The position numbers and the translations under genes were made by a program. DNA of 64,000 bases. Source: Lentisphaeria bacterium (lineage in GTDB: Bacteria > Verrucomicrobiota > Lentisphaeria > Victivallales > Victivallaceae). The stretch is from the NCBI GenBank assembly GCA_018265615.1, contig JABLYX010000019.1, forward strand, positions 13,165 to 77,164, read 5' to 3'. The notes under the pieces were generated by a model. That model did no database searches and was not told the origin of the DNA. It saw only the letters and a list, made by a program, of their open reading frames with translations. Positions 9,150 to 53,019 of the stretch are shown one piece after another (within the stretch, counting starts at the first letter, position 1; each line of letters begins with the position of its first letter).

Positions 9150-9758
9150 TTAAGCGGCGGACGCGGTGTTATGGATTTTACGCAGGGTCGCCGCAAGCGG
9201 CTTCCCGCAGTCAACCAGCTCTTTCACATAATTTTCGGCGCCGCGGTACGCCTCCATGACCGCGAGGGACTCGGCGGGATCACCGGCCACGCGCCAGAGG
9301 CCGCGGGGAACCGCGAGGCAGCCCGCCGGATTTTCGAGGAACCCGCGCACATCCTTCAGCGGGTACCCGAGAAACGCCCCGATCTCATGCGGGAACCCGC
9401 CCTCCCCGCGGCAGCGCCGGACGAGTTCATCGAGCTCGGAGCCGGAACGGTAGCCGCGCTCCCGCAGGAACTCCGCCGTCTCCGGCCGCGCCAGGTGCGC
9501 CCCCAGCACATCGCGGCGGAAGAAAAAAACCACGAGGTTGCCGCCGTTCCGCTTCAAGATCAGGCATTCGAGCTTCAGCGCATCGAGGATCTCCTGCTGA
9601 TGGACGCAGAAAAGGTCGAACTGCCTGCCGCCCGCGAGGTGCCGGCAGTTCGTCAGCCGCAGCAGCCCGGAGGGCTTCACGCCGAGGATCACCGGTGCGA
9701 GCTTCACAAGCAGATGCCGGATCAACCGGTGTGTGTTCGGGCAGTTCGTCAGTTTCAT
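9150..9758 (-). CDS. DUF3793-family hypothetical protein
   Basis: 202 aa with an LGYP motif region; no other recognisable domain. Confidence 0.5.
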   Translation of the reverse strand: MKLTNCPNTHRLIRHLLVKLAPVILGVKPSGLLRLTNCRHLAGGRQFDLFCVHQQEILDALKLECLILKRNGGNLVVFFFRRDVLGAHLARPETAEFLRERGYRSGSELDELVRRCRGEGGFPHEIGAFLGYPLKDVRGFLENPAGCLAVPRGLWRVAGDPAESLAVMEAYRGAENYVKELVDCGKPLAATLRKIHNTASAA

Positions 9759-9870
9759 GTGAGCTCCTCAACCGCAATAATTAGTTACATCTAACTTTCT
9801 GTGCAAATAAAAAATCCGTTCATCCATGCATCAATATATATGCGCGGGGAACGGATTTCAAGCCCCGGAA

Positions 9871-10170
9871 TTAGAAAAGGCTAACTTTTTCCGGTTCGAT
9901 CCTGTGCACGGTGAACGGTTCGGAGGTGTATTCGTTGACGCACCCCGCGAAACCGAGGAAATGGCTGGTCTGGTTGTGCTCTTCGAGCGCCTTGTCGCTC
10001 TCCCAGGTTTCGAGGATGATGTAGAGGTTCGGGTGCAGGACATCGGGATAGATGTCGTAGCTGATGTTGCCTTTCTCCCGGCGGGAGTTCTCGACGAGCG
10101 GCTTCACCATCGCTTCGAAGGCGACGGCTTTTTCAGGACGGACCGGAACGGTGACAATGAGTTTGAACAT
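9871..10170 (-). CDS. Antibiotic-biosynthesis-monooxygenase (ABM) domain protein
   Basis: 99 aa ferredoxin-like ABM fold pattern (MFKLIVTVPVRPEK...ILETWESDKALEEH). Confidence 0.65.
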   Translation of the reverse strand: MFKLIVTVPVRPEKAVAFEAMVKPLVENSRREKGNISYDIYPDVLHPNLYIILETWESDKALEEHNQTSHFLGFAGCVNEYTSEPFTVHRIEPEKVSLF

Positions 10171-10174
10171 GATA

Positions 10175-10717
10175 CTACTCCTCTTTCGGTTCGGAAGCGG
10201 GAGCGGCCGGAGCCCGGGGGCCGGGACCTTCCTGCTTCGGTTGTTCGAGCAATTGCCGCTTCTGCATCTCCTGCTGCATCTGCTGCTGGAAATGCGGCAT
10301 ATTCTCTTCCATTTTCCGCCGCGTGACTTCCGCGACGGCGACGGCGATCCGCGTCCCGGCGGCGGCCTTCCTGCGGCCGATGGGGGATTGGTAGAAACGG
10401 ATCAGCTCGCGGATTTCGTCCGGCGTGTAAATGTCGAGGTAGATCTTCGCAAGCTCCTCCTTCTGCGCCTCATACGAAATGGTCCGGCGCAGATACGATT
10501 CGAACGCCTGCCGGTACGGCTGCAGCTCCGGAGCGCTTTTGAGCTGAGCGTCAAGGCTGGTCTGCAGCGTCTGCTCCATCATGCGCGGCGTGCCTTCGGC
10601 CTCGAGCAGCGCATAGGCGAGCATCATCTCCTCAAGGCGGTAGCTCTTCACCGGTTCGGCGGCCGCGAAAACGCAGGATGCGAACGATAATACGGCAATC
10701 ATCAGGCGGGACTTCAT
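10175..10717 (-). CDS. Secreted DUF2059-domain protein
   Basis: N-terminal signal peptide (MKSRLMIAVLSFASCVFAAA), DUF2059-like core, Gln/Glu-rich low-complexity tail. Confidence 0.55.
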   Translation of the reverse strand: MKSRLMIAVLSFASCVFAAAEPVKSYRLEEMMLAYALLEAEGTPRMMEQTLQTSLDAQLKSAPELQPYRQAFESYLRRTISYEAQKEELAKIYLDIYTPDEIRELIRFYQSPIGRRKAAAGTRIAVAVAEVTRRKMEENMPHFQQQMQQEMQKRQLLEQPKQEGPGPRAPAAPASEPKEE

Positions 10718-11580
10718 GGTTTCTCCTCCGTGGAAGGCGCACCGGCGAGCCGGATTCCGTCGTCCGAAATCACGATTTTACGCTCTTTGTAAAGTATGCC
10801 GATGAGCTGTTTGAATACACGTTTGCTGAAGCTGAAATAGTCGCGGATCTCCTCGAGGCTGCTTTTCGCGTTCAGCGGCAGGAAGCCGCCCGCATCCTCA
10901 AGCGCGTCGAGGATCACCGGCTTGTATGCCGCGACTCCTCCGAAGCCGTCGGGGCGGAGCCGGACGTCGACCCGGTTCTCCTCCTGCCGGACCGCATGGA
11001 CGTACCCGGTCAGGCGGTCGCCGGGGCGGACGGACTGGAAAAGCTCGTTATAATAGATGATTCCGATATATTTATCCTCGACGATCACACGCCAGCCGAG
11101 CCGCGCTTTGTCCCAGACCGTCACGCGGACTTCGCTGTTCGGCGCGAGCTCCGACACATCGCCCTTGTAGAAGCGGCTCAGGCGGCGCGACGCGGCGATG
11201 CGCCCGGTCAGTTGATCGATATAGAGGCGGACGAGGCAGGTTCTGCCCGCTTCGACCCGCTCCGGCTGCTCGCGGAACGGCAGCAGCAGATCCTTGTCGA
11301 GTCCCCAGTCGAGGAAGGCGCCGATCTTCGTAATTTCCTTCACGCGCAGCAGCGCGAGCGTATCCACCTCGGCCTTCGGCTTCTGCGTGGTCGCGACGGG
11401 GCGGTCCTCGGAGTCGAGCGACAGGAATACGTCGATCTCATCCCCCTCCGCGAAACCCGCCGGAACGAATTTTTTCGGCAGCAGGACGGTCTCCCGGTGA
11501 TTGCGCCCGTCGGAGAGGAAGAAGCCGAATTCGGTCTCCTTCTCCGCTGTGAGGCGCTGGTGTTTTCCGATATTGAGCAT
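10714..11580 (-). CDS. S1 RNA-binding domain protein (CvfB/YitL family)
   Basis: 288 aa with multiple S1-like repeats and a C-terminal winged-helix region characteristic of CvfB. Confidence 0.7.
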   Translation of the reverse strand: MLNIGKHQRLTAEKETEFGFFLSDGRNHRETVLLPKKFVPAGFAEGDEIDVFLSLDSEDRPVATTQKPKAEVDTLALLRVKEITKIGAFLDWGLDKDLLLPFREQPERVEAGRTCLVRLYIDQLTGRIAASRRLSRFYKGDVSELAPNSEVRVTVWDKARLGWRVIVEDKYIGIIYYNELFQSVRPGDRLTGYVHAVRQEENRVDVRLRPDGFGGVAAYKPVILDALEDAGGFLPLNAKSSLEEIRDYFSFSKRVFKQLIGILYKERKIVISDDGIRLAGAPSTEEKP

Positions 11581-11583
11581 GTT

Positions 11584-12441
11584 CTAAAGATTCTTTCCGA
11601 TAATTTTGATCGAGCCGAGCGGGCTCGCGACGCGCTGCGAAACAACCTGGCACTTCACGCGCAGCAGGAAAAAAACCGGGCGCTCGGTAAACCCCTCGTC
11701 GAGCGACTCGAAGTTCCCCTGCCCCTTGGAGACAACCACATCCGCGCGGCGCATCGCATCGAGCAGCTCCCGGCTGCTGTTGCGCAGCGAGACGCCGGGC
11801 GCACGGTCGCCGGTGTCGACGACCGGCACCCCCGTGATCCCGGAGAGCGCCGCTTCGCGCCGGGTCACGTCGTTCAGGATCGGCAGCCCGCGAACGCCGA
11901 TCGTGATCTTGTCGCGGTAACGCTCGATCAGCAGCCGGTCGATGACCGCTTCGCCGCAGTTGTCGAGCATGTAAAAGACCGACTGCGCCGCGTCGAGCCG
12001 GCGCTTGAACTCCGCGCACAGCCCGCGGTCGAACGGCAGGTCGAAAACCTCGCGGATCTTCTCCTCCGCCTCGCACAGGTCGAAGTTCGGATTCACGCCG
12101 TAATCGATGATGTTCCCGCCGATCGCCAACCGCACGGCGGCCTCGAACGGATCGGGCGCCTCCTCCGCCATGCGCCGCAGGTCGGGCAGCAGCGCAAGTC
12201 CGAGCTCGGTCGAACGCTCCTTGATCTCGCGCAGCGGATCATCCACGCCGGAGAGCCCGGAGACGATCGAGTGAAACATCGACGCGAATTCAGGCGGAGT
12301 CGTCTCTTCGTCCGCCTCGAGCACAAGCCGCAGCAGCCGTTTCACGAGGGCATGCTGCGCATCGGCGGAGCCGGCCGCTTTTTTCGCAAGCTCCGAGAGC
12401 TGCGAAAGGATGCAGGGGTAACAGTCAACCTGGACACGCAT
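11584..12441 (-). CDS. DUF89 (ARMT1-like damage-control phosphatase) family protein
   Basis: 285 aa; conserved DUF89 features (CYPCILSQ N-terminus, MLDNCGE, VSKGQGNFE). Confidence 0.7.
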   Translation of the reverse strand: MRVQVDCYPCILSQLSELAKKAAGSADAQHALVKRLLRLVLEADEETTPPEFASMFHSIVSGLSGVDDPLREIKERSTELGLALLPDLRRMAEEAPDPFEAAVRLAIGGNIIDYGVNPNFDLCEAEEKIREVFDLPFDRGLCAEFKRRLDAAQSVFYMLDNCGEAVIDRLLIERYRDKITIGVRGLPILNDVTRREAALSGITGVPVVDTGDRAPGVSLRNSSRELLDAMRRADVVVSKGQGNFESLDEGFTERPVFFLLRVKCQVVSQRVASPLGSIKIIGKNL

Positions 12442-39062: not shown

Positions 39063-39084
39063 CGAATCAAGGAGTTTGTCAAGC

Positions 39085-40668
39085 ATGGGAGTCGTCATCA
39101 TCGCAACCATCGCCGGGTTCGTCATCCTGATGTTCTTCATCTCGCTGGTGACCTGGTACCGCAAGTGCCCTTCCGACCGGATCATGATCATCTACGGCAA
39201 GACCGGCGGGAACCAGGCTGCGAAGTGCATCCACGGCGGTGCGAAATTCGTCTGGCCCGTCGTGCAGGACTACGGATACATCTCACTGCGTCCGCTGCAG
39301 ATCGCCGTGAATCTCGACAACGCGCTGTGCAAACAGAATATCCGCATCAACGTGCCGTCGGTCTTCACAGTCGGCGTGTCGACAAGCCCCGAGATCATGG
39401 GCAACGCAGCCGAGCGCCTGTTCGGCCAGAGCCCCGAAGCGATCGCCGAGCTCGCAAAGGACATCATCTTCGGCCAGCTGCGTCTCGTCATCGCCTCGAT
39501 GATGATCGAGGAGATCAACGCCGACCGCGAAACCTTCCTGCGCGCCGTCGAAGCGAACGTGGCCGAAGAGCTCAAAAAGATCGGCCTTGAACTCCTGAAC
39601 GTGAACATCACCGACATCACCGACGAATCCGGCTACATCTCGGCCATCGGGCAGCGCGCCGCCGCGGGCGCGATCAACAAAGCGAAGGTCGACGTGGCCG
39701 AAGAACAGCGCAAGGGCAGCATCGGTGCGGCCGAGGCGAACAAGCTCGAACGCGTCGCCGTGGCGAAAGCGGAGGCCGAAGCCGCCTCCGGCGAGGCCGA
39801 TGCAGACCGCGAACGGCGCATCGCCGTCAAGCAGGCCGAAGCTGCCGCAATCGCGGGCGAGGCCGACGCCGACCGCGCCCAGCGCATCGCCGTCAAACAG
39901 GCCGAAGCCGCCGCGGCGGCGGGCGAAGCCGACGCCGACCGCGACCGCCGTATCGCCGTCAAACAGGCGGATTCGACCGCGACCCAGGGCGAGAACGTCT
40001 CGGCGATCGAAATCGCGCAATCCAACGCCACGCGCTCCGAACAGGAAGCCGAGGCGTACCGCCGCGCCGAAGCGGCCCGCCAGGTGGCGGCCGCCCAGAT
40101 CGAAAAGGCGAAGTACGAGGCCGAAGCCGACGCCCAGATCTCCCGCGCGAAGATGGAGATGGAGCGCCAGCGCGCCGAAGTCATCGTCCCGGCGGAAATC
40201 CAGAAGAGCCAGATCGAAATCGCGGCCGACGCCGAGGCCGAAAAGCTGCGCCGCGAGGCGAAAGGCGAAGCCGATGCGATTTTCGCGAAGCTCGAAGCCG
40301 AGGCGCGCGGCAATTACGAGATCCTGAAAGCGAAGGGCGAGGGCTATCGCGCCATTATCGAAGCGTGCGAGAACGACTCGAACTCCGCCTCGAAGATGCT
40401 GCTCATCGAAAAGCTCCAGGAGATCGTCGCACTGCAGACCGAAGCGATCAAGGGCATCAAGATCGACAAGGTCACAGTCTGGGACGGCGGCAGCAAGACC
40501 GCCGACGGCAAGACCACCACGGCGAACTTCCTCTCCGGCATGCTGCAGAGCCTGCCGCCGCTGCACGATGTCGCCGGCATGGCCGGGCTCGACCTGCCGG
40601 ATTACCTCGGCAAGGTCAAGAGCGACAAACGCGACACGGTCGAGGCGGAAGCGACTCCCGCCGAATAA
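39085..40668 (+). CDS. Flotillin-family SPFH/band-7 protein (YqiK/FloT-like)
   Basis: N-terminal TM anchor, SPFH domain, long Ala/Glu-rich coiled-coil with EA repeats, conserved C-terminal region. AAGGAG RBS before the ATG at 39085. Confidence 0.85.
   Translation: MGVVIIATIAGFVILMFFISLVTWYRKCPSDRIMIIYGKTGGNQAAKCIHGGAKFVWPVVQDYGYISLRPLQIAVNLDNALCKQNIRINVPSVFTVGVSTSPEIMGNAAERLFGQSPEAIAELAKDIIFGQLRLVIASMMIEEINADRETFLRAVEANVAEELKKIGLELLNVNITDITDESGYISAIGQRAAAGAINKAKVDVAEEQRKGSIGAAEANKLERVAVAKAEAEAASGEADADRERRIAVKQAEAAAIAGEADADRAQRIAVKQAEAAAAAGEADADRDRRIAVKQADSTATQGENVSAIEIAQSNATRSEQEAEAYRRAEAARQVAAAQIEKAKYEAEADAQISRAKMEMERQRAEVIVPAEIQKSQIEIAADAEAEKLRREAKGEADAIFAKLEAEARGNYEILKAKGEGYRAIIEACENDSNSASKMLLIEKLQEIVALQTEAIKGIKIDKVTVWDGGSKTADGKTTTANFLSGMLQSLPPLHDVAGMAGLDLPDYLGKVKSDKRDTVEAEATPAE
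39791..39988 (+). repeat. 3 x 66-bp in-frame tandem repeat inside the flotillin gene, encoding GEADADRxRRIAVKQAEAAAxA
   Basis: Units at 39791-39856, 39857-39922 and 39923-39988 are ~85% identical at the DNA level. Confidence 0.7.
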
Positions 40669-41572: not shown

Positions 41573-43411
41573 ATGATGATGCGATTCCTGTTCATTGCCG
41601 CCTTATCCGCCGCCGCGCTGTTCCTCGCGGCGGGAGAGCTCAAAATCACTGTGCTGTCGGATATCCACGTCTCGCCGGGAAACGGGAACGACAAGCTCAT
41701 GCCGCAGTTGATCGACGAAATCAACGCGAATGATTCCGATCTCGTCGTCGTGACCGGCGATCTCACGAACCGCGGCGCGGACGCCGAGCTCAAACACATT
41801 CACAACGTGCTCTCCGGAATCAGAAAACCGGTTTACGCCATCACCGGCAACCACGAGACGAACTGGTCCGAGAGCGCGGGGCAGACTTTCGCAAAGCTGT
41901 GGGGCAGCGAAAACTTCGCCTTCAGGCACGACGGCGTCGTATTGATCGGATTCTCGACCGGCCCCTACCTGAAAATGGGAGACGGCTATGTGCGCAGCGA
42001 AGACGTCGCTTTCCTGAAGGAGTCCCTCAAGCGCCTCGCCGGAGCGGGGGAGCCGGTGCTGATCTTCTGTCACTATCCGTTGGCCGACGAGCTCGGCAAC
42101 GGAGCCGCCATCGCAAAGATCCTGCGGAAATACAATGTCATCGCCGTCGTCTCCGGGCACACGCACCGGCAGTTCCGGCAGCGCATCTACGGGCTCGACA
42201 GCGTCGTCTGCCGCACCATCACGGACAGCCGCAAAACTCACGGCTACAACCTGCTCCGCTTCGACGGCGAAAAAACGCTTGAAGCATTCGAAAAACGCCT
42301 CGGCGGCGAAATCCTGCCGATCGAACAGCTCAAGCCGTATGAAGAGAGGCCGTTCCCGGCGGAGGCGCCACTCCCCGACCATGTGGAACTGACCCTGCTG
42401 CACGCCGACCCGGCTTCGGTTTTCACCGGGGCAGCGGTCACGGAAAACGGCATCTATTACGGAACCAGCGACGGCCGGTTCGTCGCCCTCTCCCCCGACG
42501 GGAAAAATGTCCTGTGGGAGAAGAAATTCGGCACGCCGCTCCACTCCACCCCCGCCGCCTTCGACGGTACGGTCGCAATCGGTACAACCGCCGCTCCGGA
42601 CGGCCAGGAGGGAGGCGGCGGCATCGCCCTCTTCTCGGAGCGCGCCCGAACGCTGCTGAACTGGCTCGCGACGCCGGCCCCGGTCATCGGCGGCGGCACA
42701 ACGGCCAATGGTGAACTCTACATCGGCGGCGGAAGCAAACTCTTCTGCCGCATCGACAGAAACGGCGGCTGCGTCACAGCCTCCGGCGAGGATTTCGGCC
42801 CGATGCAGGGGCGTCCGGCCGTCGGGAACGGAGTCGTGGTGTTCGGCGCGTGGGATACGAACCTCTACGCCCTCGACGCCGAAACGCTCGAGCCGCTCTG
42901 GAAGTGGAACAACGGGAAAAAGCAGATCCTCTACTCCCCCGGCAACGTGAACCCGGTCATCGCGAACGGCCAGGCGATCATCGTCGCTCCGGACCGGTTC
43001 ATGACCGCAATCGACCTCAAAAGCGGCAAACAGGTCTGGCGCAGCAACGCATATAAATTCCGCGAATCGCTCGGCGGCAGCGAGGACGGCGGAACCGTCT
43101 ATGCGAAAACCATGGACGGCGAACTTGTCGCGGTCGAAACCGGCAGGCCGGAATTCACCCTGAAGTGGCGGTGCGACCTGAAGTTCGGCTACGACCACTC
43201 CCCCTGCCCCGTCCTCGAAGCGGACGGAGTCATTTACGCGGGCAGCCGCAACGGCGTCATCGCCGCGGTGGACGCCGTGAACGGAACGCTGCTCTGGAGG
43301 TTCCGCGGCGGCGACTCCGCCGTGAACGGCTTCACCCGGGGCCCCGACGGCAGTGTCTACGCAACACTGATCGAGGGAAAGCTCTACCGGATCAGCGGAA
43401 GAACTCCCTGA
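41573..43411 (+). CDS. Secreted calcineurin-like metallophosphoesterase fused to a PQQ-like beta-propeller repeat domain
   Basis: Signal peptide; MPP motifs (ITVLSDIHV, VVTGDLTNRG, ITGNHE, SGHTHR); C-terminal repeated YxGxxDGxLxAxDxxxGxxxW blocks typical of PQQ/BamB-like propellers. Confidence 0.7.
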   Translation: MMMRFLFIAALSAAALFLAAGELKITVLSDIHVSPGNGNDKLMPQLIDEINANDSDLVVVTGDLTNRGADAELKHIHNVLSGIRKPVYAITGNHETNWSESAGQTFAKLWGSENFAFRHDGVVLIGFSTGPYLKMGDGYVRSEDVAFLKESLKRLAGAGEPVLIFCHYPLADELGNGAAIAKILRKYNVIAVVSGHTHRQFRQRIYGLDSVVCRTITDSRKTHGYNLLRFDGEKTLEAFEKRLGGEILPIEQLKPYEERPFPAEAPLPDHVELTLLHADPASVFTGAAVTENGIYYGTSDGRFVALSPDGKNVLWEKKFGTPLHSTPAAFDGTVAIGTTAAPDGQEGGGGIALFSERARTLLNWLATPAPVIGGGTTANGELYIGGGSKLFCRIDRNGGCVTASGEDFGPMQGRPAVGNGVVVFGAWDTNLYALDAETLEPLWKWNNGKKQILYSPGNVNPVIANGQAIIVAPDRFMTAIDLKSGKQVWRSNAYKFRESLGGSEDGGTVYAKTMDGELVAVETGRPEFTLKWRCDLKFGYDHSPCPVLEADGVIYAGSRNGVIAAVDAVNGTLLWRFRGGDSAVNGFTRGPDGSVYATLIEGKLYRISGRTP

Positions 43412-44489
43412 CCGCCGCAATCACGCAATCGGCCTCCTCCGGCTTCAGATGGGGGCCGATCGGCAGGCTCAGAACCGTCTCCGCCATCCGTTCCGACAAC
43501 GGGAAATCCCCGCGTTTGAAATTCATATCCGCATACGCCTGCGACAGATGCGGGGGGATCGGGTAGTGGATCATCGTCTGGATTTCACGCTCCGTCAGGA
43601 ACCGCTGAAGCTCATCCCGCCGGTCGCACCGGACGATGAACTGATGCCAGACGCTCTCCTCCAACGCGGCGCCGGGCAGCTCAAGCTCCCCGATTCCGCG
43701 GAGGCCTTCGAAATAACGTGCGGCGATTTTCCGGCGGCGTTCGTTCCACTCATCGAGATACCTGAGCTTCACGCCGAGGAAGGCGGCCTGCATCGAATCG
43801 ATGCGCCGGTTGTACCCTTTCATCTCATTGTGGTACTTCTTCTTCGAACCGTAATTGCGCAGCATGCGCACCTTGTCCGCAATGGCGGGGTCGTCGGTCG
43901 TGACGGCCCCGGCCTCCCCGAACGCGCCGATGTTCTTGCCCGGATAGAAGCTGAGCGCCCCGGCATGCCCGAGCGCACCGGTCCGTTTGCCGCGGTAGAG
44001 CGCCCCCTGGGACTGCGCGTTGTCCTCGAGGACAAACAGCCCGTGCTTCTCCGCAATCTCCATGACGGGAGCCATATCGACCGGGACTCCGTAAAGATGG
44101 ACGACCGCAATCGCACTCGTCCGCGGCGTAATCGCCTCCTCGATCCGGGCGGGATCGATGTCGAAGGTTCCCGGAGCCGGCTCGACCGGAACCGGCACCG
44201 CGCCGACCTGAGAAACCGCCAGCCACGTGGCGATGTAGGTGTTGGCCGGAACGATCACCTCGTCCCCTTCCTTCACCCCGCCGGCCTCAAGGCCGAGGCA
44301 GAGCGCATCGAGCCCGTTCGAAACGCCGACGCAGAACTTCGTCCCGCAGTATTCCGCAAACGCCTTCTCAAACGCCTCGGTCTCCGGCCCGAGTACATAC
44401 CAGCCGGAGTTCATGAACCGGAAATATGCCTCATCCAGCTCACCCTTCAGCTCCAGATAGGGAGCCTTCATATCCAGAAATTGAATCAT
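43392..44489 (-). CDS. DegT/DnrJ/EryC1/StrS-family PLP-dependent sugar aminotransferase (FdtB/WecE-like)
   Basis: 365 aa; conserved N-terminus ([38 protein letters not shown]) and the Lys-containing [17 protein letters not shown] motif. Confidence 0.85.
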
Positions 44490-45334
44490 TTGTCTTCGCT
44501 CTTGTATTTCAAGAATTCATTGTAGTCCCGAATATAATCATCCGGCTCATAACCGCGCGAGGCCAGCACCAGCAGCACGCAGTCGGCCGAGTGCTTGTAC
44601 TGGATTCCCCAGCAGCCGGAGGGCAGATGCAAACCGCGTGTCGGCGTATCGAGCACATATTCCCCGCGTTTCCTGCCGTCATCGACAATCACATGCAGAG
44701 AGCCGTGAAGCGCAATCAGGAACTGTTCGCAAACTTTGTGCGCATGCTCGCCGCGAACCTCCGAAGAACCGACGCCATACGTGTAAAAAATCCGCTTCAC
44801 CGGAAACGGGAGCAGTTTTTCGAATTCCAGAACGCTCAGATCCCCGCGGATATCGGAAAAGCTCGGGATCGAATACAGAAGCTTCGATTCGCCGGCGGAC
44901 GCACGATCCCCCTGCCCCTGCCCTCCGGTCAATTCAGCGCCGACATACCCGACGATGCGCGCCGGATTCCCGACCACAATCGCATAAGGCGGAACATTTT
45001 TCGTGACGACCGCCCCGGCCCCGACCATCGCATGAGCGCCGATCGTCACAGGCAGGATCGTCGCATTCGCCCCGATCACAGCTCCGTTGCCGATCCGCAC
45101 AAATTTCGCGGTATCCGGATCAGCCATAAGAACGGCAGAATCCCCGATCCGAACCGAATCCTCCAGAATCGCCCCGCCCGGGATCACACACAGTGAACCG
45201 ATTTTCACATCGCTGCCGATCTCCGCCCGGGGACCGATGCAAACCCACTCGCCAAGCTGAACCCGTTCCCCGATCCTGGCTGAGTCATCAACAACAGCCG
45301 CTGTTTTCCTTAAATTCATGACGATTCCCCGCAT
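44486..45334 (-). CDS. Bifunctional protein: N-terminal hexapeptide-repeat (LbH) N-acetyl/acyltransferase fused to a C-terminal FdtA/QdtA-like dTDP-4-keto-6-deoxyhexose 3,4-ketoisomerase (cupin)
   Basis: N-terminal half is [LIV]G-x4 hexapeptide repeats ([26 protein letters not shown]...). C-terminal half has the FdtA-type RGEHAHK active-site histidines and a WxcM-like cupin. The module order is reversed relative to Xanthomonas WxcM. Confidence 0.7.
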
Positions 45335-45840
45335 CTGACAAGAAACTGTTGAAATATGGACTTTTCAAACATATCCCGAGTAAATTCGAAATAAATGAAT
45401 TTATCGTCCCGCGCAATTTCCTTCGCATAACAACGATGAAAACGAATCACCTTCCGGTTCTCCAGCATTACCTCAAAGCGGCAAATATCCAGATCCAGCT
45501 GACGGAAACCGTATTCATATCCCTGAGCAACAGACTCCTGGGCAGCCATGAGCGGCGCGCCCGGCATCAGCAGCCAGCTGCCGATGGTGAACGATCTGCG
45601 TCCGCGGTCAATATGGTAAAGGCGAATCATTCCCCATGGAGTCGCCCGGTAATCCTCGATGATGAAATAATACTCTTCGCCGGCTTCAAACCGCCGCAGA
45701 TATCCTTTCAGCCAATCCCGCTGATCTTCCACTGTGCCATTCACCGGGGACAGGAACTGATTGCGGCTGCCTTCCCGGCGGGCCTGAAAAATGAACTCCG
45801 CATCTGACAGTTCCACAGGCCGCAGCCGGATTTCCATCAT
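45316..45840 (-). CDS. GNAT-family N-acyltransferase
   Basis: ~175 aa acyl-CoA N-acyltransferase fold. Confidence 0.65.
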
Positions 45841-45876
45841 CAATTCCCCATGTACACTCGATTTCATTGCAACCCC

Positions 45877-46653
45877 TCAACGCCTCAGCCGGTAACCGCC
45901 GTCGACACACAGGTCGGTTCCGGTAATCCATCCCGCGGCATCCGACAACAGGAAAACGGCCGGCCCGGCGACATCGTCCGGCTCTCCCATCCCCAGCGGA
46001 TGGTCCTCTTCTATTCGCCGCCGTCCCTCCAAGGTCAGCCTGTCCAGATCGTCCCGGGTGATTCCGGTATTGGCAACATAACCGGGCGAAACCGTATTGA
46101 CGCGGATTTTCCGTCCGGCAAGTTCCGCGGCCAACGCACGGGCGCCGCTCAGCAGAGCTCCCTTTGTGGCCGAATAACTGCATTTTCCCGCTGTGCCGAC
46201 GCCGGCCGTCACCGAACTGATGAAAACAAAAGAGCCGCCGGACGGGATCGAATATTTTTTCTTCGCAACAATACCGGCCAAACCGAATCCGGCCGCAACG
46301 TTAAGCTGGTAAGCCGCCAGGAAATCAGTCAATGCTGTCACCTTCAGGGGACAGGAGAAAGCTGTTCCCGCCGCATGCACCAACCCATCGATTTTTCCCA
46401 ATTCAGCAACGGCCTCGGCGATGGCCGGCTCCATTTCCGCAAAATCATGGAGTGCAGTAAAATCAATGCTGATCATATGCGAACGGACACCGGCCGGAAA
46501 CGCCGCGACGCACTCTTCCAGCCGCTCACAGCACCGCCCCATCACAATCACATCGGCGCCGGCATCGGCGCATCTCCGCGCAATGGCACGACCAATTCCG
46601 GAAGAGGCGCCGGTCACGATGATTTTCTTCCCGGTCAAAGTAAAATCAATCAA
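45877..46653 (-). CDS. SDR-family oxidoreductase (FabG-like 3-oxoacyl-ACP reductase)
   Basis: TGASSGIGRAIA Rossmann motif; catalytic YSATK. Confidence 0.85.
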   Translation of the reverse strand: MIDFTLTGKKIIVTGASSGIGRAIARRCADAGADVIVMGRCCERLEECVAAFPAGVRSHMISIDFTALHDFAEMEPAIAEAVAELGKIDGLVHAAGTAFSCPLKVTALTDFLAAYQLNVAAGFGLAGIVAKKKYSIPSGGSFVFISSVTAGVGTAGKCSYSATKGALLSGARALAAELAGRKIRVNTVSPGYVANTGITRDDLDRLTLEGRRRIEEDHPLGMGEPDDVAGPAVFLLSDAAGWITGTDLCVDGGYRLRR

Positions 46654-46882
46654 AATTCTCCCTCCCGATCACATCCATCAGGGAGCCGACAGTATCAACT
46701 TCACTCAACTGCGCACCGGAAAGCTTCCGAGAAAAATTCCGGTCTGCAAACGCGACGATCGACATGATCGCAAGGGAATCGAACTCTTCGAAATCCTTCA
46801 GATCCGTCGTTTCCGACAACGTCACATCATCATCCAGTTCAAGAAGTTCCACAAGTTTTTCAAAAAATTCATTCTTTTTCAT
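46646..46882 (-). CDS. Acyl carrier protein
   Basis: 78 aa; phosphopantetheine-attachment DSL motif (EFDSLAIMSIV). Confidence 0.8.
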   Translation of the reverse strand: MKKNEFFEKLVELLELDDDVTLSETTDLKDFEEFDSLAIMSIVAFADRNFSRKLSGAQLSEVDTVGSLMDVIGRENFD

Positions 46883-46896
46883 AACAACTCTCCATG

Positions 46897-47868
46897 TTAT
46901 TTCTGTCTCTGCCGGCAGGTCAAAACGGTTGCTCCATATGAATAACCGACGCCAAAACCGGCAATCAAGATACGCTCTCCACTCCGAAACACATTTTCCG
47001 CCTGAAGCTTGTGCAGCAGAATCGGAATGCTCGACGATACCGTATTACCCGTTTCTGCAAGGTCGATATGAAAACGGGAATCTTCCACCCCCAACTTTTC
47101 CTGCAGATACCGCAACATATACTTGTTCGCCTGATGAAAGACATAATGATCGATGTCGTCAGGAACAAGCCTGTTCCGCTCCAACGTCTTTTCAACCAGC
47201 GCAGGAACCGTCTCAATTGTAAAGCTGAAGATCTCAGGACCATTCATATAAAGGAAAGGCGAACCGGATTCCCCATCCGCCCGGGCTCTTCCGCCTCCTC
47301 CTCTGACAATCAGATTCTCCGCCCCCCGGCCATCGGTTCCCAGGACGAATTCACCAACATCAAATAACGAATCCGCCTCCAGGATAACCGCTGCGGCCGC
47401 ATCTCCGAAAATGGAGCGGTTCCCCTTATCGGACGGATCAAGATAGCGGGAATAGGTTTCCGCCGTAATCAGCAGGATATGCTCCGCGACGCCTCCGGCA
47501 AGCAGGCCTTTGGCGACAGCAAGCCCGTAAACAAAACCGGAGCAACCCAGGTTGAAGTCAAAAGCCCCGACCCCGGTTGAAAGCCCGAGACGACTCTGAA
47601 GCAGCGACGAGGTCCCCGGCAGCGGATAATCGGGGCTCTGCGTACACAGCAGCAGAAAATCGATCTTCGAGCGTTCGAAGCCATCCAGAACTTTTTCTCC
47701 GGCCCTGACCGCCATATCGAGAACAGTCTCGCCCGGAGCAGCCAGATGCCGGTTCCGGATGCCGACCTTCTTCTCGATTTTCTTCGCGGAAAAATCGGAA
47801 AACTCCTCTTCCAGCATCCCGTTGGACAGCAGGCCTTCCGGCAAATAATAGGCAGATTTCCCAATCAT
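46897..47868 (-). CDS. 3-oxoacyl-ACP synthase III-like (FabH/KAS III-family) enzyme
   Basis: Active-site Cys region (NLGCSGFVYGLAVA), His (HYVFHQANKYM) and Asn (GNTVSSSIPILL) triad positions conserved. Confidence 0.85.
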   Translation of the reverse strand: MIGKSAYYLPEGLLSNGMLEEEFSDFSAKKIEKKVGIRNRHLAAPGETVLDMAVRAGEKVLDGFERSKIDFLLLCTQSPDYPLPGTSSLLQSRLGLSTGVGAFDFNLGCSGFVYGLAVAKGLLAGGVAEHILLITAETYSRYLDPSDKGNRSIFGDAAAAVILEADSLFDVGEFVLGTDGRGAENLIVRGGGGRARADGESGSPFLYMNGPEIFSFTIETVPALVEKTLERNRLVPDDIDHYVFHQANKYMLRYLQEKLGVEDSRFHIDLAETGNTVSSSIPILLHKLQAENVFRSGERILIAGFGVGYSYGATVLTCRQRQK

Positions 47869-48296
47869 ACTTCACCAGCCTTTCGATGTCTTGTCAAAAT
47901 ACGGTCAATCAGGATAAAGTTCCACAGCATCGTAACCGGAATGACCGCACAGCTCAGCAATGTCCGGTTTCCCCCGGGCAGGCCGGCGATCAGAATCGCC
48001 AGTATACCGGTTCCAAGCAGCATTCCACTCAGGTACGATACGAAATAACCCGCCAGCTTCCGCAATGACATTGCGGACTGAAACACAAAACGGGAATTCA
48101 GCCAGTACGACAGCAGCAGTGTCAGGAGATAGGATGTGCAATAAGAGAGATATGCATTCCATCCGCACACGTCATTCAGGAGAAACAGCAGCACAATGGA
48201 TACCAGCGTCACAGATGCACCGACCAGAGAGAAGCCGCTGAACTTCAGAATCAGCACACGCCAGTAAGATGGTATCTGCACTTTATTCATTTTCAT
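47865..48296 (-). CDS. GtrA-family polyprenyl-phosphate-sugar flippase
   Basis: 143 aa, 4 TM helices; GtrA-like N-terminus (KFSGFSLVGASVTLVSIVLLFLL). Confidence 0.8.
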   Translation of the reverse strand: MKMNKVQIPSYWRVLILKFSGFSLVGASVTLVSIVLLFLLNDVCGWNAYLSYCTSYLLTLLLSYWLNSRFVFQSAMSLRKLAGYFVSYLSGMLLGTGILAILIAGLPGGNRTLLSCAVIPVTMLWNFILIDRILTRHRKAGEV

Positions 48297-49281
48297 CTTT
48301 TCGCTTGATGATATAGCCGGGACGCCCCTTCACCTCTTCATAGATTCTCCAGATATACTCGGCAATCACGCCGAGCGACAGAAGGATCAGGCCGCTGAAA
48401 AAGGAGATGAAGAGAATAATGGAGGTCCAGCCAGGGACGGTAAGCCCCCAGAACCGGCTGTCTCCCCAGATCGCGATATACAGATAAAAAATAATGATGA
48501 TCAGGGAAAAGCCGGAAAACAGCAGCCCCATGCGGTTGATCATCATAATCGGGAAGGAGGAGGACGAAAAAAACGTATCCTTGGCCAATCGCAATTTCTT
48601 GCGGAACGACCAGCGGGAACTCTTCCTGTTGAGCCCCAACGGGCGCGAATACTGATAATAATACGGTTCGAATCCCAACCGCAGCACTTCGGAAATCGTC
48701 GCTGTGTTGATCGGGTGGATTTTCCGGTTGATGATATCAATCACCTCACGGTCAATAAAAAAGGTATCGGCTCCTCCGACCGGATACCTGACCTCCGAGC
48801 ACCAGTTCATCACAGTATAGAAGCATTCTGAAAAAATGCGGCTGAAGAGAGGGTCTTCCCGGTTGATGCGGTGCGGAATAATGATCTTATGCCCGTTCTC
48901 CCACAGGCGATACATGTCAACGATCGTCTCGTAAGGCTGCTGCTCATCATCCGGAATCGGCATGGCGCAGGCGCCGCGCACGACGGAAAGCCCGGCGAAG
49001 ATCGAGTAGTGGCTCGTGTAATTCCTGCTCAACTGGTAGGCGCGGACATTCGGAAACTTCTTTTCCAGTTCCAGCGCCATGCGGTATGATTCATCTTTCG
49101 AGCCGTCGTCCATCACGATGAACTCAAACGGAATCTTCTCCCGTTCCAGAAGTTCCTTCAACTTCAAATACGCTTTCCGAATCCGTTCTTTGCTGTAATA
49201 GGACAACAATATCACAGAAAGCGTCTTATCATCTTTCTTGCCGCCAACTGCTATATTCAACATGGTTTGACCTTTCGTCAA
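48283..49281 (-). CDS. GT2-family polyprenyl-phosphate glycosyltransferase (GtrB/CsbB/DPM1-like)
   Basis: GT-A motifs (LSVILLSYYS...DDGSKD) and two C-terminal TM helices, typical of GtrB-type UndP-sugar synthases. Confidence 0.85.
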   Translation of the reverse strand: MTKGQTMLNIAVGGKKDDKTLSVILLSYYSKERIRKAYLKLKELLEREKIPFEFIVMDDGSKDESYRMALELEKKFPNVRAYQLSRNYTSHYSIFAGLSVVRGACAMPIPDDEQQPYETIVDMYRLWENGHKIIIPHRINREDPLFSRIFSECFYTVMNWCSEVRYPVGGADTFFIDREVIDIINRKIHPINTATISEVLRLGFEPYYYQYSRPLGLNRKSSRWSFRKKLRLAKDTFFSSSSFPIMMINRMGLLFSGFSLIIIIFYLYIAIWGDSRFWGLTVPGWTSIILFISFFSGLILLSLGVIAEYIWRIYEEVKGRPGYIIKRKDENE

Positions 49282-49347
49282 TCATACTTCCGACTCAGAG
49301 CCATGCCCCGGATAAAAGGGCGTTCCCGTTTCTTTTCAACTGATTTA

Positions 49348-52300
49348 CTATTTTTCCATTATTTTGCAGAGTTCATAATTCTTTCTTCGCATGAACACAA
49401 AGCAGAGTCCACCTGTAATCAAAATCCCAAAAACCGATAAAATGTTTCCAACATGAGCTCCCGGAGCAGACCAGCGAACAGTAACCTCATGCTCGCCGGG
49501 AGGAACGGGGATTCCCAACAGACCATTGTTGATTCCGTAAACCTTTTCCGCCCTGCCGGAAACAGTCGCCTGCCAACCATCCTGGAAAGTTATGGGAATG
49601 CAAAGCATTCCGAACCTCCCCGAACGGTTATCCACTTTCCCCCGCCATGTCGAATGTGCATAACTGATGTTTGTCACGGGAGAAGATTTAAATGCGGCTG
49701 CTGCAGCATCAATTACCTTGTCAAAATCTTTTTGACGAATCAGAGAAAGTGACATCAACCTTGAGTTGTGATTAATACTTCTATTATTTACCATAAAACA
49801 AATCTCGGAAACAGTTTCCGACGGTAACGCCATTCGGTAAACCCTGCGTCCGGGCTCAGTCCGGAACACTCGCATATGCCCATCACAAATTGTTAAAAAT
49901 TCACAGGGGTATCTTCCGTCGTATTCAAGCTCAAGCATATGGAACCCCGATTGCGGATCTGCAATTGATACAGTTCCGGAATAAGACAATTTTCCTGAAA
50001 CATTTTGAGGTAAGGAAACTCTATTCTTTGTCGTTATGGGTGAACCGTTTCTGATGAGAGGAATACTTTCCTGAGGTAATGCTTCCTGTTTAGGGAATGA
50101 TTCAGGGAATAAGCTCGCAACAGCCGCTGCGTCAGAGCCGTCAACAAAATTAAAATGAGAAAGCCGCACACGAGAAAGCTCTTCATTCGTAAAACACTTA
50201 AGTTGATCGATGCTGATCCGATGCGTGTACAAATAGCCGAAGGGTAACTCCGTTTGCCGTGTTGATTTCCAAACCCCATTCAGGTTTTCCGGTTCCCCGT
50301 AACCAAATAATTTTGCTCCGGAATCAATGGAAATATGTGTGGAAATTCCCAGCAAAAGCTCTGTCGCGGGGTCAAGAAGAAATGAAAATTTGTTAGAATT
50401 GAAAACATCAACGGCTTCCGGCGCATATTTTTTTATCGTCGCGGGAAAAAGTGAATTATATGTGCTGACCCCCGAATAATTGTAAATCAACGGCCAGCCG
50501 TAGTGTTGAATCTTATCCCTCGAAGGCAAAAACAAGATCCTGCCGTCCGCACTCGATTCATCTACCACAGGTTTGACTTTGTGATAGATATCCCCTTGAA
50601 AAGCTCGAAAATTAAAAAAAGTCTTCTGCAAAGGGTGTCGTTGATTAATGGTCGGATTGTGCACTAAAAAAAGTTCGATTGCAACAACGCCCATCAATAA
50701 AAACGGTAAAAAACGGCAAATTCGACTTGCGGCCAGCCAGGAGAAAAATAAAAGATATATTCCAGACAAAATGGTAACATAAAGCAATACAGAAGAGCAT
50801 ACAGAAAAATATGCATATAATATAACCAAAACAAAAAACAAAAACATTAATGCAAATACATTAACTTGCCGATTTCTTTTCGGTTCCTTTATGTAATCTT
50901 CCAGAAAATTTACAATAATGACAATAGAAGAAAAAACAAAAATAAATGTCCAGCGATAAGCAAAGACATGTCGAAAGAAAAGCACAGCCAGTGGCAGAAC
51001 CATCATACCGGCAATGAACCAATATCGCCATTGGGGCCGAATGAAAAGATAATAGGCTGCGGCCCAAAAAACCAAAAGGCTGCTTGCCAAAACGGTCGCT
51101 TCATAATAATTATGTTGCACAAAATGAGATAAGACGCCAAAGTAATTGTTCGATATAAGCCGCCCCAGATAAATCATTACATCTTCAAAAGATGTGACTG
51201 CAAGAAAATTAGCTGCAGCCTTGGCGCCAACATCACTACGTCCCGATTTGCCGAAAAGCACCAGCCACGGTACGCTGATCCAGGCACTGATCATAAATCC
51301 AAGCATTCCGTTCAGAAACAATTGCAACTCATCCGTCAACCATTTTTTCAAGCGAAATCCGCGGAGTAACGAACGCGCCAGAAGATAAAATGCGGAAAAT
51401 ATTCCAATCATACTGAAGAAGTAAACAGAAAACATGCTCAATAACGCATAATTGAGCACACAGAAGAAAAAACTTTTCCTTTTATCAGATAATAGGAGTT
51501 CCAGCAAATACATGTTGATTGTAAAGAAAACCATCGCAGTCAAAAACTGGTAATGCTGCCCCCATAAAACATTGTAACTGGAAAAAGTCCACAGCATCAC
51601 CCCAATCCAAATAAAATAAGGATTACGGGCAATACGTTTAAAATAAAGCCAGGAGAAACATGCAATAACCAGATATTTCACCAATGCAATCCAAATCATA
51701 GCCTCCATAAACCGGTCAAGAGGCACAAAGAACAGAAGCAGTGAAAAGGGGTCCAGCAACTGCATCGTCAAAGTTACTGCTGAAACCCCTAAGCCCATTT
51801 GCCACAGCATCATTTGAAATGAGCCGCTTTTTAAATTCTCAATCAGGAATCGATAATATGGCAGATAACTTCGGATTGTATCGGATCCGATATCCTGAAA
51901 GCAGTAATAATACGGTCCCCAAATGTAATTCCGATAAAGCAGAAAGAAAATAATCAAGACGGATAGAATGATTCCATGAAAGGGATGGCGGGAAAAATAG
52001 TCCTCACTCTTTTTCAAAGCCCATTTCCCGGCAGAAAATATCTCTTCCAACCATCGTCCGACACAGATCGACAGCAGTAAAATCACAAACTCCGCCAGAG
52101 AGACCAGCAAAAGATTGATCCACAATATTGATTCGCACGGATACTGCTGAAAAAATTTCGAATTTGAAACCAGATAACAATCATTTCCGGAGGAACTCCA
52201 TTCACTTCCACGAGCAGTTTGCTTCCAATCCGCAACATGATTCCGACTGACAAAAACATCGGAAATTTTTTCACCGGAAATAAAATATGAAAAAATGAAA

Positions 52301-52665
52301 TTACGCTGGATGCGAATCGCACGAAGAGAAAATTGTTCTCCACTCCGGCTTCCGAAGTCAAACCGGAGCCGACGATATTCAACACTGGCGGGCAAACGGA
52401 AATGAAGAGCAGCAAATCTTCCGGGCGAATTGTACTCTTTCGTTTCACTCGCCTTTTGAGAATAAGTATCGGGAGAAAAAAAGGGATCGAGATAAAAAAC
52501 CTGGACAGCAGTGTCTCTCGTGGAAGACATCTCTACAAACACATCTGTTTTCAGGATGAACTGCAAAAGAATCGCATTTAAAACAACGAAGCAGAGAATG
52601 CCGATGCCAACACCCTTCGCATGCAATAGCCGCGATACAATACTCGGAGTAAACGCTTTTGCCAT
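49348..52665 (-). CDS. YfhO-family GT-C-type membrane glycosyltransferase (1105 aa; extra ~180-aa N-terminal domain; C-terminal TM anchor)
   Basis: ~13 TM helices, a large extracytoplasmic C-terminal domain, and a final TM helix (VGNILSVFGILITGGLCFVFMRRK), which matches YfhO topology. The coding DNA is conspicuously AT-rich (~35-40% GC). Confidence 0.7.
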   Translation of the reverse strand: MAKAFTPSIVSRLLHAKGVGIGILCFVVLNAILLQFILKTDVFVEMSSTRDTAVQVFYLDPFFSPDTYSQKASETKEYNSPGRFAALHFRLPASVEYRRLRFDFGSRSGEQFSLRAIRIQRNFIFSYFISGEKISDVFVSRNHVADWKQTARGSEWSSSGNDCYLVSNSKFFQQYPCESILWINLLLVSLAEFVILLLSICVGRWLEEIFSAGKWALKKSEDYFSRHPFHGIILSVLIIFFLLYRNYIWGPYYYCFQDIGSDTIRSYLPYYRFLIENLKSGSFQMMLWQMGLGVSAVTLTMQLLDPFSLLLFFVPLDRFMEAMIWIALVKYLVIACFSWLYFKRIARNPYFIWIGVMLWTFSSYNVLWGQHYQFLTAMVFFTINMYLLELLLSDKRKSFFFCVLNYALLSMFSVYFFSMIGIFSAFYLLARSLLRGFRLKKWLTDELQLFLNGMLGFMISAWISVPWLVLFGKSGRSDVGAKAAANFLAVTSFEDVMIYLGRLISNNYFGVLSHFVQHNYYEATVLASSLLVFWAAAYYLFIRPQWRYWFIAGMMVLPLAVLFFRHVFAYRWTFIFVFSSIVIIVNFLEDYIKEPKRNRQVNVFALMFLFFVLVILYAYFSVCSSVLLYVTILSGIYLLFFSWLAASRICRFLPFLLMGVVAIELFLVHNPTINQRHPLQKTFFNFRAFQGDIYHKVKPVVDESSADGRILFLPSRDKIQHYGWPLIYNYSGVSTYNSLFPATIKKYAPEAVDVFNSNKFSFLLDPATELLLGISTHISIDSGAKLFGYGEPENLNGVWKSTRQTELPFGYLYTHRISIDQLKCFTNEELSRVRLSHFNFVDGSDAAAVASLFPESFPKQEALPQESIPLIRNGSPITTKNRVSLPQNVSGKLSYSGTVSIADPQSGFHMLELEYDGRYPCEFLTICDGHMRVFRTEPGRRVYRMALPSETVSEICFMVNNRSINHNSRLMSLSLIRQKDFDKVIDAAAAAFKSSPVTNISYAHSTWRGKVDNRSGRFGMLCIPITFQDGWQATVSGRAEKVYGINNGLLGIPVPPGEHEVTVRWSAPGAHVGNILSVFGILITGGLCFVFMRRKNYELCKIMEK

Positions 52666-53019
52666 AATTATTCGAACCAGTCATTCACTCCGGCTGTTCA
52701 AGTTCTTTCAATTGCTCTATTGACGACGAGATCCGACATCACACTTTCCGCAGAATGTAATATACTTCATAAAATAAGTTTTACAACTTCAGCAATCCAT
52801 TTTGTCCGTTAAACGGCAAAGAATGCCGATGAGTTTCCCGAATCAAATATACCGTCAGCGCTGAAGTCGGTGCGGAAAGCGCAACAGCAGCAATTCCATC
52901 AACCCAAGCCGCCAGACCGGAAGCGGAAAAATTGTGGAAGAAGCATTGCTTTTTTATAATCCTCTAATTATGGATTGTCATCCATATTGATTTCCCTGCA
53001 AAAGCCACTATATTGAATC

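Follow-up and report, generated by a model that had tools for sequence, protein, structure and literature searches.

Nine genes on the minus strand of a 64,000-nucleotide stretch of DNA (contig JABLYX010000019.1; this whole stretch is hereafter the window), from the metagenome-assembled genome of an uncultured Lentisphaeria bacterium, probably encode a Gtr-type, lipid-carrier-mediated glycosylation system that includes its own donor-sugar pathway, with an N-(3-hydroxyacyl) 3-amino-3,6-dideoxyhexose as the predicted sugar. The operon runs from 52665 to 43392, and its six sugar and acyl genes are the 3' two-thirds of a unit headed by genes for a YfhO-family protein, a GtrB-like protein and a GtrA-family protein. 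Several public metagenome assemblies hold the same DNA, 100% identical at the protein level. From 5' to 3', the genes of the operon, with the two halves of its one fusion protein, are:

49348 to 52665, minus strand: first gene, YfhO-family polytopic glycosyltransferase, 1105 aa (PF09586, 1.3e-37)
48283 to 49281, minus strand: GtrB/ArnC/PgfS-like family 2 glycosyltransferase (GT2; Pfam Glycos_transf_2; 326 aa from the gene caller's start at 49263)
47865 to 48296, minus strand: GtrA-family small membrane protein (PF04138, 1.8e-15)
46897 to 47868, minus strand: condensing enzyme of KAS III (beta-ketoacyl-acyl carrier protein synthase III) type, 323 aa (Pfam ACP_syn_III, ACP_syn_III_C)
46646 to 46882, minus strand: dedicated acyl carrier protein (ACP), 78 aa (Pfam PP-binding)
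45877 to 46653, minus strand: FabG-like ketoreductase, a short-chain dehydrogenase/reductase (SDR), 258 aa (Pfam adh_short_C2, KR)
45316 to 45867, minus strand: FdhC-like GNAT, predicted N-acyltransferase for a 3-amino sugar (Pfam Acetyltransf_3)
45334 to 44486, minus strand: fusion of a left-handed beta-helix (LbH) domain and a cupin, 282 aa (Pfam Hexapep and FdtA, PF05523, in a single protein)
44930 to 45334, minus strand: LbH (FdtC/WlbB-like) domain at the N-terminus of the fusion, residues 1-135 (Pfam Hexapep)
44486 to 44878, minus strand: FdtA-type cupin 3,4-ketoisomerase, forming the C-terminal part (residues 153-282) of the fusion (PF05523)
43392 to 44489, minus strand: last gene, DegT-family pyridoxal phosphate-dependent aminotransferase of the C-3 (FdtB/QdtB/DesV) type (PF01041)

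That these form a nine-gene operon follows from a largest intergenic gap of 66 bp within the block, an AT-rich region of 354 bp at its 5' end, and a convergent gene at its 3' end. A preliminary description of the interval 43392-47868 had read it as a line for an N-acylated 3-amino-3,6-dideoxyhexose linked to deoxythymidine diphosphate (dTDP), and this central reading is supported by the protein families, the catalytic residues, the FdhC-like GNAT and the C-3 aminotransferase matches. All the families it named (DegT, LbH–FdtA fusion, GNAT, SDR, ACP and KAS III) were assigned by Pfam or NCBIfam, and the Gtr/YfhO trio it had placed alongside is present (GtrA, GT2 and YfhO at 47865-52665). However, the seven consecutive genes it counted are six open reading frames, overlapping or nearly abutting, that carry seven domains, and the sugar genes it put upstream of the trio have lower plus-strand coordinates yet lie transcriptionally downstream. 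The families, catalytic residues, synteny, cassette behaviour, GNAT clade and loop loss set out below are established by computation.

The sugar backbone is indicated by the last two genes of the operon. The cupin half of the fusion matches PF05523 at 1.1e-47 (161.5 bits against a Pfam cut-off of 23), and bears, at residues 194-200, the RGEHAHK signature that had been picked out in the preliminary description. Among solved structures, the whole fusion comes closest to FdtD of Shewanella denitrificans (4mzu; 8.4e-63), which the PDB describes as "a bifunctional ketoisomerase/N-acetyltransferase" and with which it is colinear, having the LbH domain at the N-terminus and the cupin at the C-terminus. 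An order reversed relative to WxcM had been claimed, but the order is that of FdtD and WxcM, because PF05523 is itself named "WxcM-like, C-terminal" and 4mzu aligns colinearly. The label "fused FdtC-FdtA" holds in so far as there is an LbH–FdtA fusion, but its FdtC-like half has probably lost the acceptor-binding loop. An AlphaFold model of the fusion (pLDDT 86.8) gives a TM-score of up to 0.80 against 4mzu, and the modelled cupin half superposes at about 1 Å on FdtA (2pa7) and on the FdtD cupin (4zu4). Retention of the FdtA catalytic residues had been set beforehand as a test of the cupin assignment, and these residues are conserved: H197 and H199 align with FdtA His49 and His51, which are mutated in 2pae (H49N), 2pak (H51N) and the double mutant 2pam, while R163 aligns with an FdtA arginine, and all three are invariant across 40 homologues.

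The cupin is 55% identical to that of FdtD and 42% identical to FdtA, and its matches to these two enzymes with galacto products (1e-41 for FdtD and 9e-29 for FdtA) are stronger than that to QdtA (1e-17). It has Arg163 where QdtA has Tyr17, and Gly243 where FdtA has His95, with FdtD sharing the Gly243-type difference; we take Y17 and R97 of QdtA to be the relevant positions, which the residue offsets and the titles of PDB entries support in part. These comparisons tentatively favour the galacto form of the product (Fuc3N) over the gluco form (Qui3N). The aminotransferase matches DegT_DnrJ_EryC1 (PF01041) at 9.7e-118 and has the SFYPGK lysine motif. Its best PDB matches are all C-3 aminotransferases, namely DesV (4.8e-124), QdtB (9.2e-115), WlaRG (2e-104) and also WbpE. 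Each of the six highest-scoring distinct PDB sequences, at 1e-104 to 5e-124, is a 3-aminotransferase, whereas 4-aminotransferases reach only 1e-39 to 1e-59. The block running GtrB–GtrA–KAS III–ACP–SDR–GNAT–fusion–DegT is syntenic, at 55-88% amino acid identity, in the metagenomic lineages L006/L007 and L008/L009, and in L008 it is followed by rmlB, rmlA, rmlC and rmlD, which supports a dTDP-sugar substrate.

In the proposed pathway, dTDP-4-keto-6-deoxy-D-glucose, supplied by RmlA and RmlB encoded elsewhere, would be isomerised to the 3-keto sugar by the cupin domain, and aminated at C-3 by the DegT enzyme to yield a dTDP-3-amino-3,6-dideoxyhexose. The KAS III would condense a short acyl-coenzyme A (CoA) primer, at its simplest acetyl-CoA, with malonyl-ACP to form a 3-oxoacyl-ACP on the dedicated ACP, which the SDR would reduce to a 3-hydroxyacyl-ACP, at its simplest 3-hydroxybutanoyl-ACP. 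The FdhC-like GNAT would then put the 3-hydroxyacyl group on the C-3 amine, after which the GtrB-like GT2 would transfer the N-acyl sugar to undecaprenyl phosphate, GtrA would aid its translocation across the membrane, and the YfhO-family enzyme would attach it to an acceptor glycan or protein. Every substrate in this scheme is inferred, and so are acyl donation from ACP instead of CoA, the length of the acyl chain, the configuration at C-4 and the acceptor.

The supply of the acyl group would depend on three genes that resemble a miniature fatty acid synthesis set. The KAS III retains its catalytic triad, with C109, H245 and N275 aligning with C112, H244 and N274 of E. coli FabH and being invariant, and its best PDB match is 3gwa (2.9e-80). 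It is not a housekeeping FabH, because it is only 32% identical to the E. coli enzyme, scores below the TIGR00747 fabH cut-off (236.6 against 292.1), and has no other fab gene near it: none of fabD, fabF, plsX or acpP lies in the window, where E. coli FabD, PlsX and AcpP queries found no match. Its homologues at 54-85% identity are all in polysaccharide loci, and its distinctness from the housekeeping enzyme, anticipated by the preliminary description, is thereby upheld. The ACP is only 21% identical to E. coli AcpP, with its D35-S36 aligned with the phosphopantetheine attachment serine of the latter, and the SDR, 33% identical to E. coli FabG, has a TGASSGIG motif and aligns N118, S147, Y160 and K164 with the FabG catalytic residues.

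3-Hydroxybutanoyl would be the simplest product of this module, because the cassette has one condensing enzyme and neither a dehydratase nor an enoyl reductase. Primer specificity differs among KAS III enzymes, and nothing in the sequence fixes the chain length. Another short 3-hydroxyacyl group, arising from a propionyl or branched primer or from repeated use of the KAS III, would leave the rest of the model standing, and Flavobacterium psychrophilum makes a 3,5-dihydroxyhexanoyl group with a similar gene set (PMC6519341). However, there are two condensing enzymes in F. psychrophilum and one here, and in the characterised polysaccharides Fuc3N and Qui3N have been reported to carry 3-hydroxybutanoyl (PMC4869667, PMC3726653); a different acyl group thus appears unlikely, and 3-hydroxybutanoyl is retained as the working prediction.

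The transfer of this group to the sugar is assigned to the GNAT, which is 183 aa long if it starts with the ATG at 45867 and 173 aa long with the gene-called start, the ATG at 45837. Among solved proteins, only FdhC from Acinetobacter nosocomialis (5kta; 7.5e-28 over residues 15-173) is closely related to it. The 3-hydroxybutanoyl group is transferred by FdhC in the Fuc3N(R3Hb) pathway and by QdhC in the Qui3N(R3Hb) pathway (PMC4869667), the known gene set for Fuc3N(R3Hb) comprising the five genes rmlA, rmlB, fdtA, fdtB and fdhC (PMC3726653). In the window and five further lineages (L006, L008, L015, L064 and L065), the GNAT gene is contiguous with those for the KAS III, ACP and SDR. In a neighbour-joining tree that carries no bootstrap values, all six lineages have their GNATs in a single clade, apart from FdhC, the Acinetobacter genes and those of the many ACP-less metagenomic FdtA–GNAT–DegT trios; they are 32-47% identical to the FdhC type, and always joined to a KAS III–ACP–SDR trio. 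That this clade would use acyl-ACP we infer from its gene context alone. When genome contigs were searched with a profile built from a four-sequence GNAT alignment, only three distant loci were found, none of them of the window's clade.

The four acyl genes behave as a unit, for which the most telling evidence is a natural insertion or deletion. The Lentisphaerae loci L015 and L067 are collinear, with 82-92% nucleotide identity on both sides of a site between the GT2 and fusion genes, at which L015 has a 2.7-kb segment (8955-11690) consisting of exactly KAS III–ACP–SDR–GNAT, and L067 has 94 bp (8934-9027). Hence the four genes act as a discrete cassette that was inserted into, or dropped from, an existing operon of the Xanthomonas wxcK–wxcM type. 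A broader proposal, to which we give somewhat less than even chances, is that KAS III–ACP–ketoreductase–GNAT is a transferable "acyl-swap" cassette, the insertion of which into a WxcM/WxcK-type Gtr operon would convert an N-acetyl side-branch sugar into an N-(3-hydroxyacyl) one; the GNAT clade would then be the first GNAT-fold nucleotide-sugar N-acyltransferases fed directly by acyl-ACP, and the redundant LbH domain would subsequently decay.

The same loci bear on another account, in which the bifunctional fusion makes plain dTDP-Fuc3NAc or dTDP-Qui3NAc, and the four-gene block serves an unrelated lipid, an N-acyl metabolite or another glycan residue. L067-type loci do without the block, the fusion is a clear FdtD homologue by both sequence (8.4e-63) and model (TM-score 0.80), and the LbH loop of L015 is intact. 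Yet the block is always found between the GtrB/GtrA and the isomerase/aminotransferase genes, in one operon with overlapping or near-abutting frames; most of the metagenome loci that are of sufficient length for a judgement have FdhC-like GNATs next to FdtA and DegT genes; and the window's LbH domain has no conserved acceptor loop. We therefore regard this account as very unlikely, and favour N-(3-hydroxyacylation) by the GNAT.

The LbH half of the fusion is the second candidate for the acyltransferase. Its best PDB matches are WlbB (3mqg) and FdtD (4mzu), both of which retain an F-T-N-D..P-R loop. The corresponding segment, F-T-N-D-K-F-P-R-S, is kept nearly unchanged in 107 of the 120 closest homologues, and is missing from the window's protein, where an 8-9-residue deletion at about residues 70-73 is accompanied by an Ala in place of the Asn kept in those 107. 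The window fusion and its four closest relatives are correspondingly 274-282 aa long, about 30 aa shorter than the 305-317 aa or so of typical WxcM-like fusions. Asn84 and Arg94 of WlbB, which we take to be its sole protein contacts with the amino sugar and from which the role of the loop is drawn, are, after a two-residue tag offset, the N of F-T-N and the R ten residues on, in the segment absent here. Without this loop, acetyltransferase activity is doubtful, and the LbH half is probably no longer an amine N-acetyltransferase; its loss therefore makes the GNAT the likely N-acyltransferase. The domain looks like a relic of an ancestral Fuc3N N-acetyltransferase, perhaps kept for another purpose, such as oligomer assembly. 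Its nonsynonymous divergence (dN) is 2-2.7 times that of the cupin half. Other Lentisphaerae/Victivallaceae LbH–FdtA fusions also lack the F-T-N-D loop, in L066 (8093-10990), beside an unannotated 178-aa protein that is not a GNAT, and in L068 (5354-8000), beside a separate LbH acyltransferase. A rule that a replacement acyltransferase stands beside every loop-less fusion was rejected, as it holds for the window's clade (the GNAT) and for L068, and fails for L066.

Alternatively, the LbH domain might itself transfer an ACP-borne acyl group in the manner of LpxA and LpxD, with the GNAT acting otherwise, for instance in N-acetylation or at another site. The domain matches LpxA and LpxD models at 1e-12 to 1e-20 and is under purifying selection, the KAS III–ACP–SDR trios of Chryseobacterium adjoin LbH acyltransferases, and the predicted ACP-dependent transferase of F. 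psychrophilum, WfpG, is a PglD-like LbH protein (PMC6519341). Nevertheless, L064 and L065 carry all four acyl genes without any LbH domain, the GNAT is gained and lost together with the other three cassette genes, and the loop bearing the equivalents of Asn84 and Arg94, with the role presumed for them above, is absent. Furthermore, the nearest characterised relative of the GNAT is a hydroxybutanoyl transferase for exactly this sugar. Transfer by the LbH domain consequently seems quite unlikely, and the GNAT remains the preferred acyltransferase.

The 5' third of the operon encodes a GtrA-family protein, a GtrB-like GT2 and a polytopic transferase together, as in the three-component systems of the Gtr type. 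The GT2 matches the NCBIfam models for PgfS (3.3e-39) and ArnC (1.2e-21), both under cut-off, and is predicted to load the finished nucleotide sugar onto undecaprenyl phosphate; orthologues 67-74% identical to it lie directly 5' of the cassette in L006, L008, L015 and L064, and GtrA orthologues are present in L006 and L008. The YfhO-family protein has about 19 hydrophobic segments in a crude hydropathy scan and a C-terminus resembling PgfM1 and PgfM2; its predicted role is to take the sugar from the lipid carrier and pass it to an acceptor that lies outside the cytoplasmic membrane. The protein encoded 5' of the GtrB-like gene differs between lineages as follows:

Window: YfhO
L006: GtrII-type protein (PF14264)
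L015 (5869-8019), L064 (6905-9028) and L067 (5848-7998): polytopic family of 707-716 aa with no Pfam match
L058: unrelated protein of 644 aa

All of these 5' membrane proteins are polytopic, and variation of the polytopic enzyme between lineages would be expected if it were a Gtr system's type-specific component. The 707-716-aa proteins, which take the place that YfhO has in the window, may be an unannotated family of lipid-carrier-dependent glycosyltransferases. In L038 (5027-11793; also L040), the order is YfhO, DegT, GNAT, GT2, GtrA, FdtA, LbH, with neither KAS III nor ACP; as this is an independent lineage, the link of YfhO/Gtr proteins with 3-amino-3,6-dideoxyhexose genes is recurrent. 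A further arrangement, in L058, is FdtA, two LbH proteins, KAS III, SDR, GNAT, DegT, GtrA and GT2.

Several observations weigh against the proposed pathway. Firstly, FdhC, the model for the GNAT, is said to take its acyl group from CoA (work attributed to Salinger et al. 2016), and the tree that sets the cassette GNATs apart from FdhC is the neighbour-joining tree without bootstrap values. Secondly, the cassette encodes neither a malonyl-CoA:ACP transacylase nor a phosphopantetheinyl transferase, meaning the housekeeping FabD and phosphopantetheinyl transferase would have to serve its ACP. Thirdly, queries with the L008 proteins found no match to rmlA, rmlB, rmlC or rmlD within the window. Fourthly, the LbH half has a dN/dS of about 0.12-0.28, a rough ratio given the saturated synonymous divergence (dS), which still indicates purifying selection; an interpretation of the domain as a decaying pseudo-domain was rejected, dN being well below dS. 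Fifthly, L015, which seems to have received the cassette recently, has an intact LbH loop as well as a GNAT, so the two acyltransferases can coexist, and the LbH domain may have another role. Finally, the KAS/ACP/ketoreductase sets of Chryseobacterium and F. psychrophilum pair with LbH acyltransferases, not GNATs. In Chryseobacterium indologenes (L014, 9001-10993), for example, a polysaccharide locus holds a KAS III–ACP–SDR trio with 44-54% identity to that of the window, next to genes for LbH acyltransferases, MBOAT and Acyl_transf_3, whereas GNAT and FdtA are absent; this KAS III occurs in dozens of Chryseobacterium species, and the homologues in such trios are 54-55% identical to the window's KAS III.

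All the parts of this operon are of known kinds, and what is new is their combination, the ACP-linked GNAT clade, the behaviour of the cassette, and the apparent decay of the fused acetyltransferase domain. The sugar genes themselves are familiar from the FdtA/FdtB/FdhC and QdtA/QdtB/QdhC sets of E. coli O103, Salmonella O55, Acinetobacter and Hafnia alvei, in which a cupin, a C-3 DegT aminotransferase and an FdhC-family GNAT are likewise neighbours; L012 and L013, two Acinetobacter loci, have this trio of genes too, as do many loci from metagenomes. These known sets have no ACP, KAS III or ketoreductase, and their FdhC acyl group is said to come from CoA, whereas the window's GNAT belongs to a separate clade, its isomerase is fused to an LbH domain, and its sugar genes form part of a Gtr-type operon, not of an O-unit or capsule locus. 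The window's fusion protein shares its two domains and their order with FdtD (4mzu) and WxcM, and its cupin His pair and Arg are conserved, but both of those proteins have the intact LbH loop that is absent from its roughly 30-aa-shorter sequence.

The nearest counterpart at the level of the system is region 3 of the Xanthomonas campestris wxc cluster (wxcK aminotransferase, wxcL GT2, wxcM bifunctional protein, wxcN and wxcO), which likewise gathers an aminotransferase, an LbH–cupin fusion, a GT2 and membrane proteins into one block for one 3-amino-3,6-dideoxyhexose. This region is genetically required for the N-acetylfucosamine (FucNAc) side branch on the rhamnan O-antigen, which is added independently of the main chain (PMC4878081), and WxcM carries the annotation of a bifunctional acetyltransferase/isomerase (PMC13133917). 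Among the Lentisphaerae, the loci of the L067 type seem to correspond directly to region 3. Unlike the window's operon, the Xanthomonas region has no acyl-building module, its product is N-acetylated, and its terminal membrane enzyme is not a YfhO protein, with WxcL, WxcN and WxcO being compared by description only.

For the membrane part, the Gtr systems (GtrA, GtrB and a type-specific Gtr), CsbB/YfhO and the PgfS/PgfM systems of Firmicutes share a GT2 that loads polyprenyl phosphate, a GtrA-family protein and a polytopic outward-facing transferase. However, these classical systems use UDP-linked glucose or N-acetylglucosamine and have no sugar-synthesis genes, whereas the window's operon has a dTDP amino-sugar line, in a diderm host of the PVC group.

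For the acyl part, a precedent has been published in the wfpC-wfpG genes of F. psychrophilum, which encode two 3-ketoacyl-ACP synthases, an ACP, a 3-ketoacyl-ACP reductase and a PglD-like acyltransferase, the predicted product being N-(3,5-dihydroxyhexanoyl)-Qui2NAc4N (PMC6519341). This set and the window's are both private, resemble type II fatty acid synthesis, are placed in a polysaccharide locus and would provide the short hydroxyacyl group with which a nucleotide amino sugar is N-acylated; they differ in that wfpC-G, themselves predicted from genes and glycan structure, have an LbH acyltransferase, two condensing enzymes and a UDP-linked 4-amino sugar. The logic of a dedicated ACP is also that of tetronate addition to perosamine by RfbK-O in Vibrio cholerae O1. 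The rhizobial NodE, NodF and NodG proteins have likewise been described (PMC9048898), and in the NodE/NodF(/NodG)/NodA system a dedicated ACP with its own chain builders supplies an acyl group amide-linked to a sugar amine, as is proposed here. The condensing enzymes, acyltransferase folds, sugars and acyl chains of the Nod and RfbK-O systems all differ from those of the window, so the likeness is one of logic only. A literature search turned up no described KAS III/ACP system for sugar acylation.

Short N-acyl groups on amino sugars influence how antibodies and phages recognise a surface glycan. Where Fuc3N or Qui3N carries 3-hydroxybutanoyl, the transferase (FdhC or QdhC) is the only component assigned so far, the donor being assumed to come from central metabolism. 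The operon and its relatives suggest a second route, with a private ACP-based supply and a distinct clade of GNATs travelling as a four-gene cassette. If this is correct, they provide a testable case of a GNAT sugar acyltransferase that draws on acyl-ACP, L067 and L015 form a natural pair, before and after, in which to study the swapping of glycan tailoring modules, and YfhO-type glycosylation gains its first functional lead in the Lentisphaerae, a poorly studied group. The finding opens no long-standing question, and is prediction throughout.

The operon looks like a horizontally acquired island. Its flanking genes have functions unrelated to glycan synthesis and a GC content at third codon positions (GC3) of 0.70-0.86, compared with 0.80 in the DegT gene, 0.52-0.68 from the fusion through GtrB, and 0.42 in YfhO, the lowest of the region; this stepwise fall along 43392-52665 suggests a mosaic, with parts of different ages. 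The compositional heterogeneity noted in the preliminary description was therefore borne out, although its figures were only rough, the measured GC contents being 44.7% for the ACP, 51.5% for the GNAT, 53.5% for the KAS III and 58.6% for the SDR, with a GC3 of 0.52-0.65 in these genes. All six sugar and acyl genes are under purifying selection, with dN of 0.09-0.21 relative to orthologues in other metagenomes, between which dS is saturated, so that dN/dS values are rough only.

At the 5' end of the operon, one further feature was distinguished:

52666 to 53019, minus strand: presumed promoter region, AT-rich, being the 354-bp gap between the YfhO start and a divergent gene

Sigma-70-like sites at 52786-52759 and 53035-53007 are matches to the consensus only, and a scan for terminators found sites no more frequent than chance. 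The convergent gene at the other end (41573-43411) encodes a metallophosphoesterase fused to a pyrroloquinoline quinone (PQQ)-type beta-propeller, and its 3' end overlaps that of the DegT gene by 20 bp (43392-43411), leaving no space for a terminator between them. Further along, on the plus strand, a flotillin/Band_7 gene (39076-40668) contains a 66-bp tandem repeat of 3.1 copies at 39790-39993, which encodes units of the type GEADADR..RIAVKQAEAAA.

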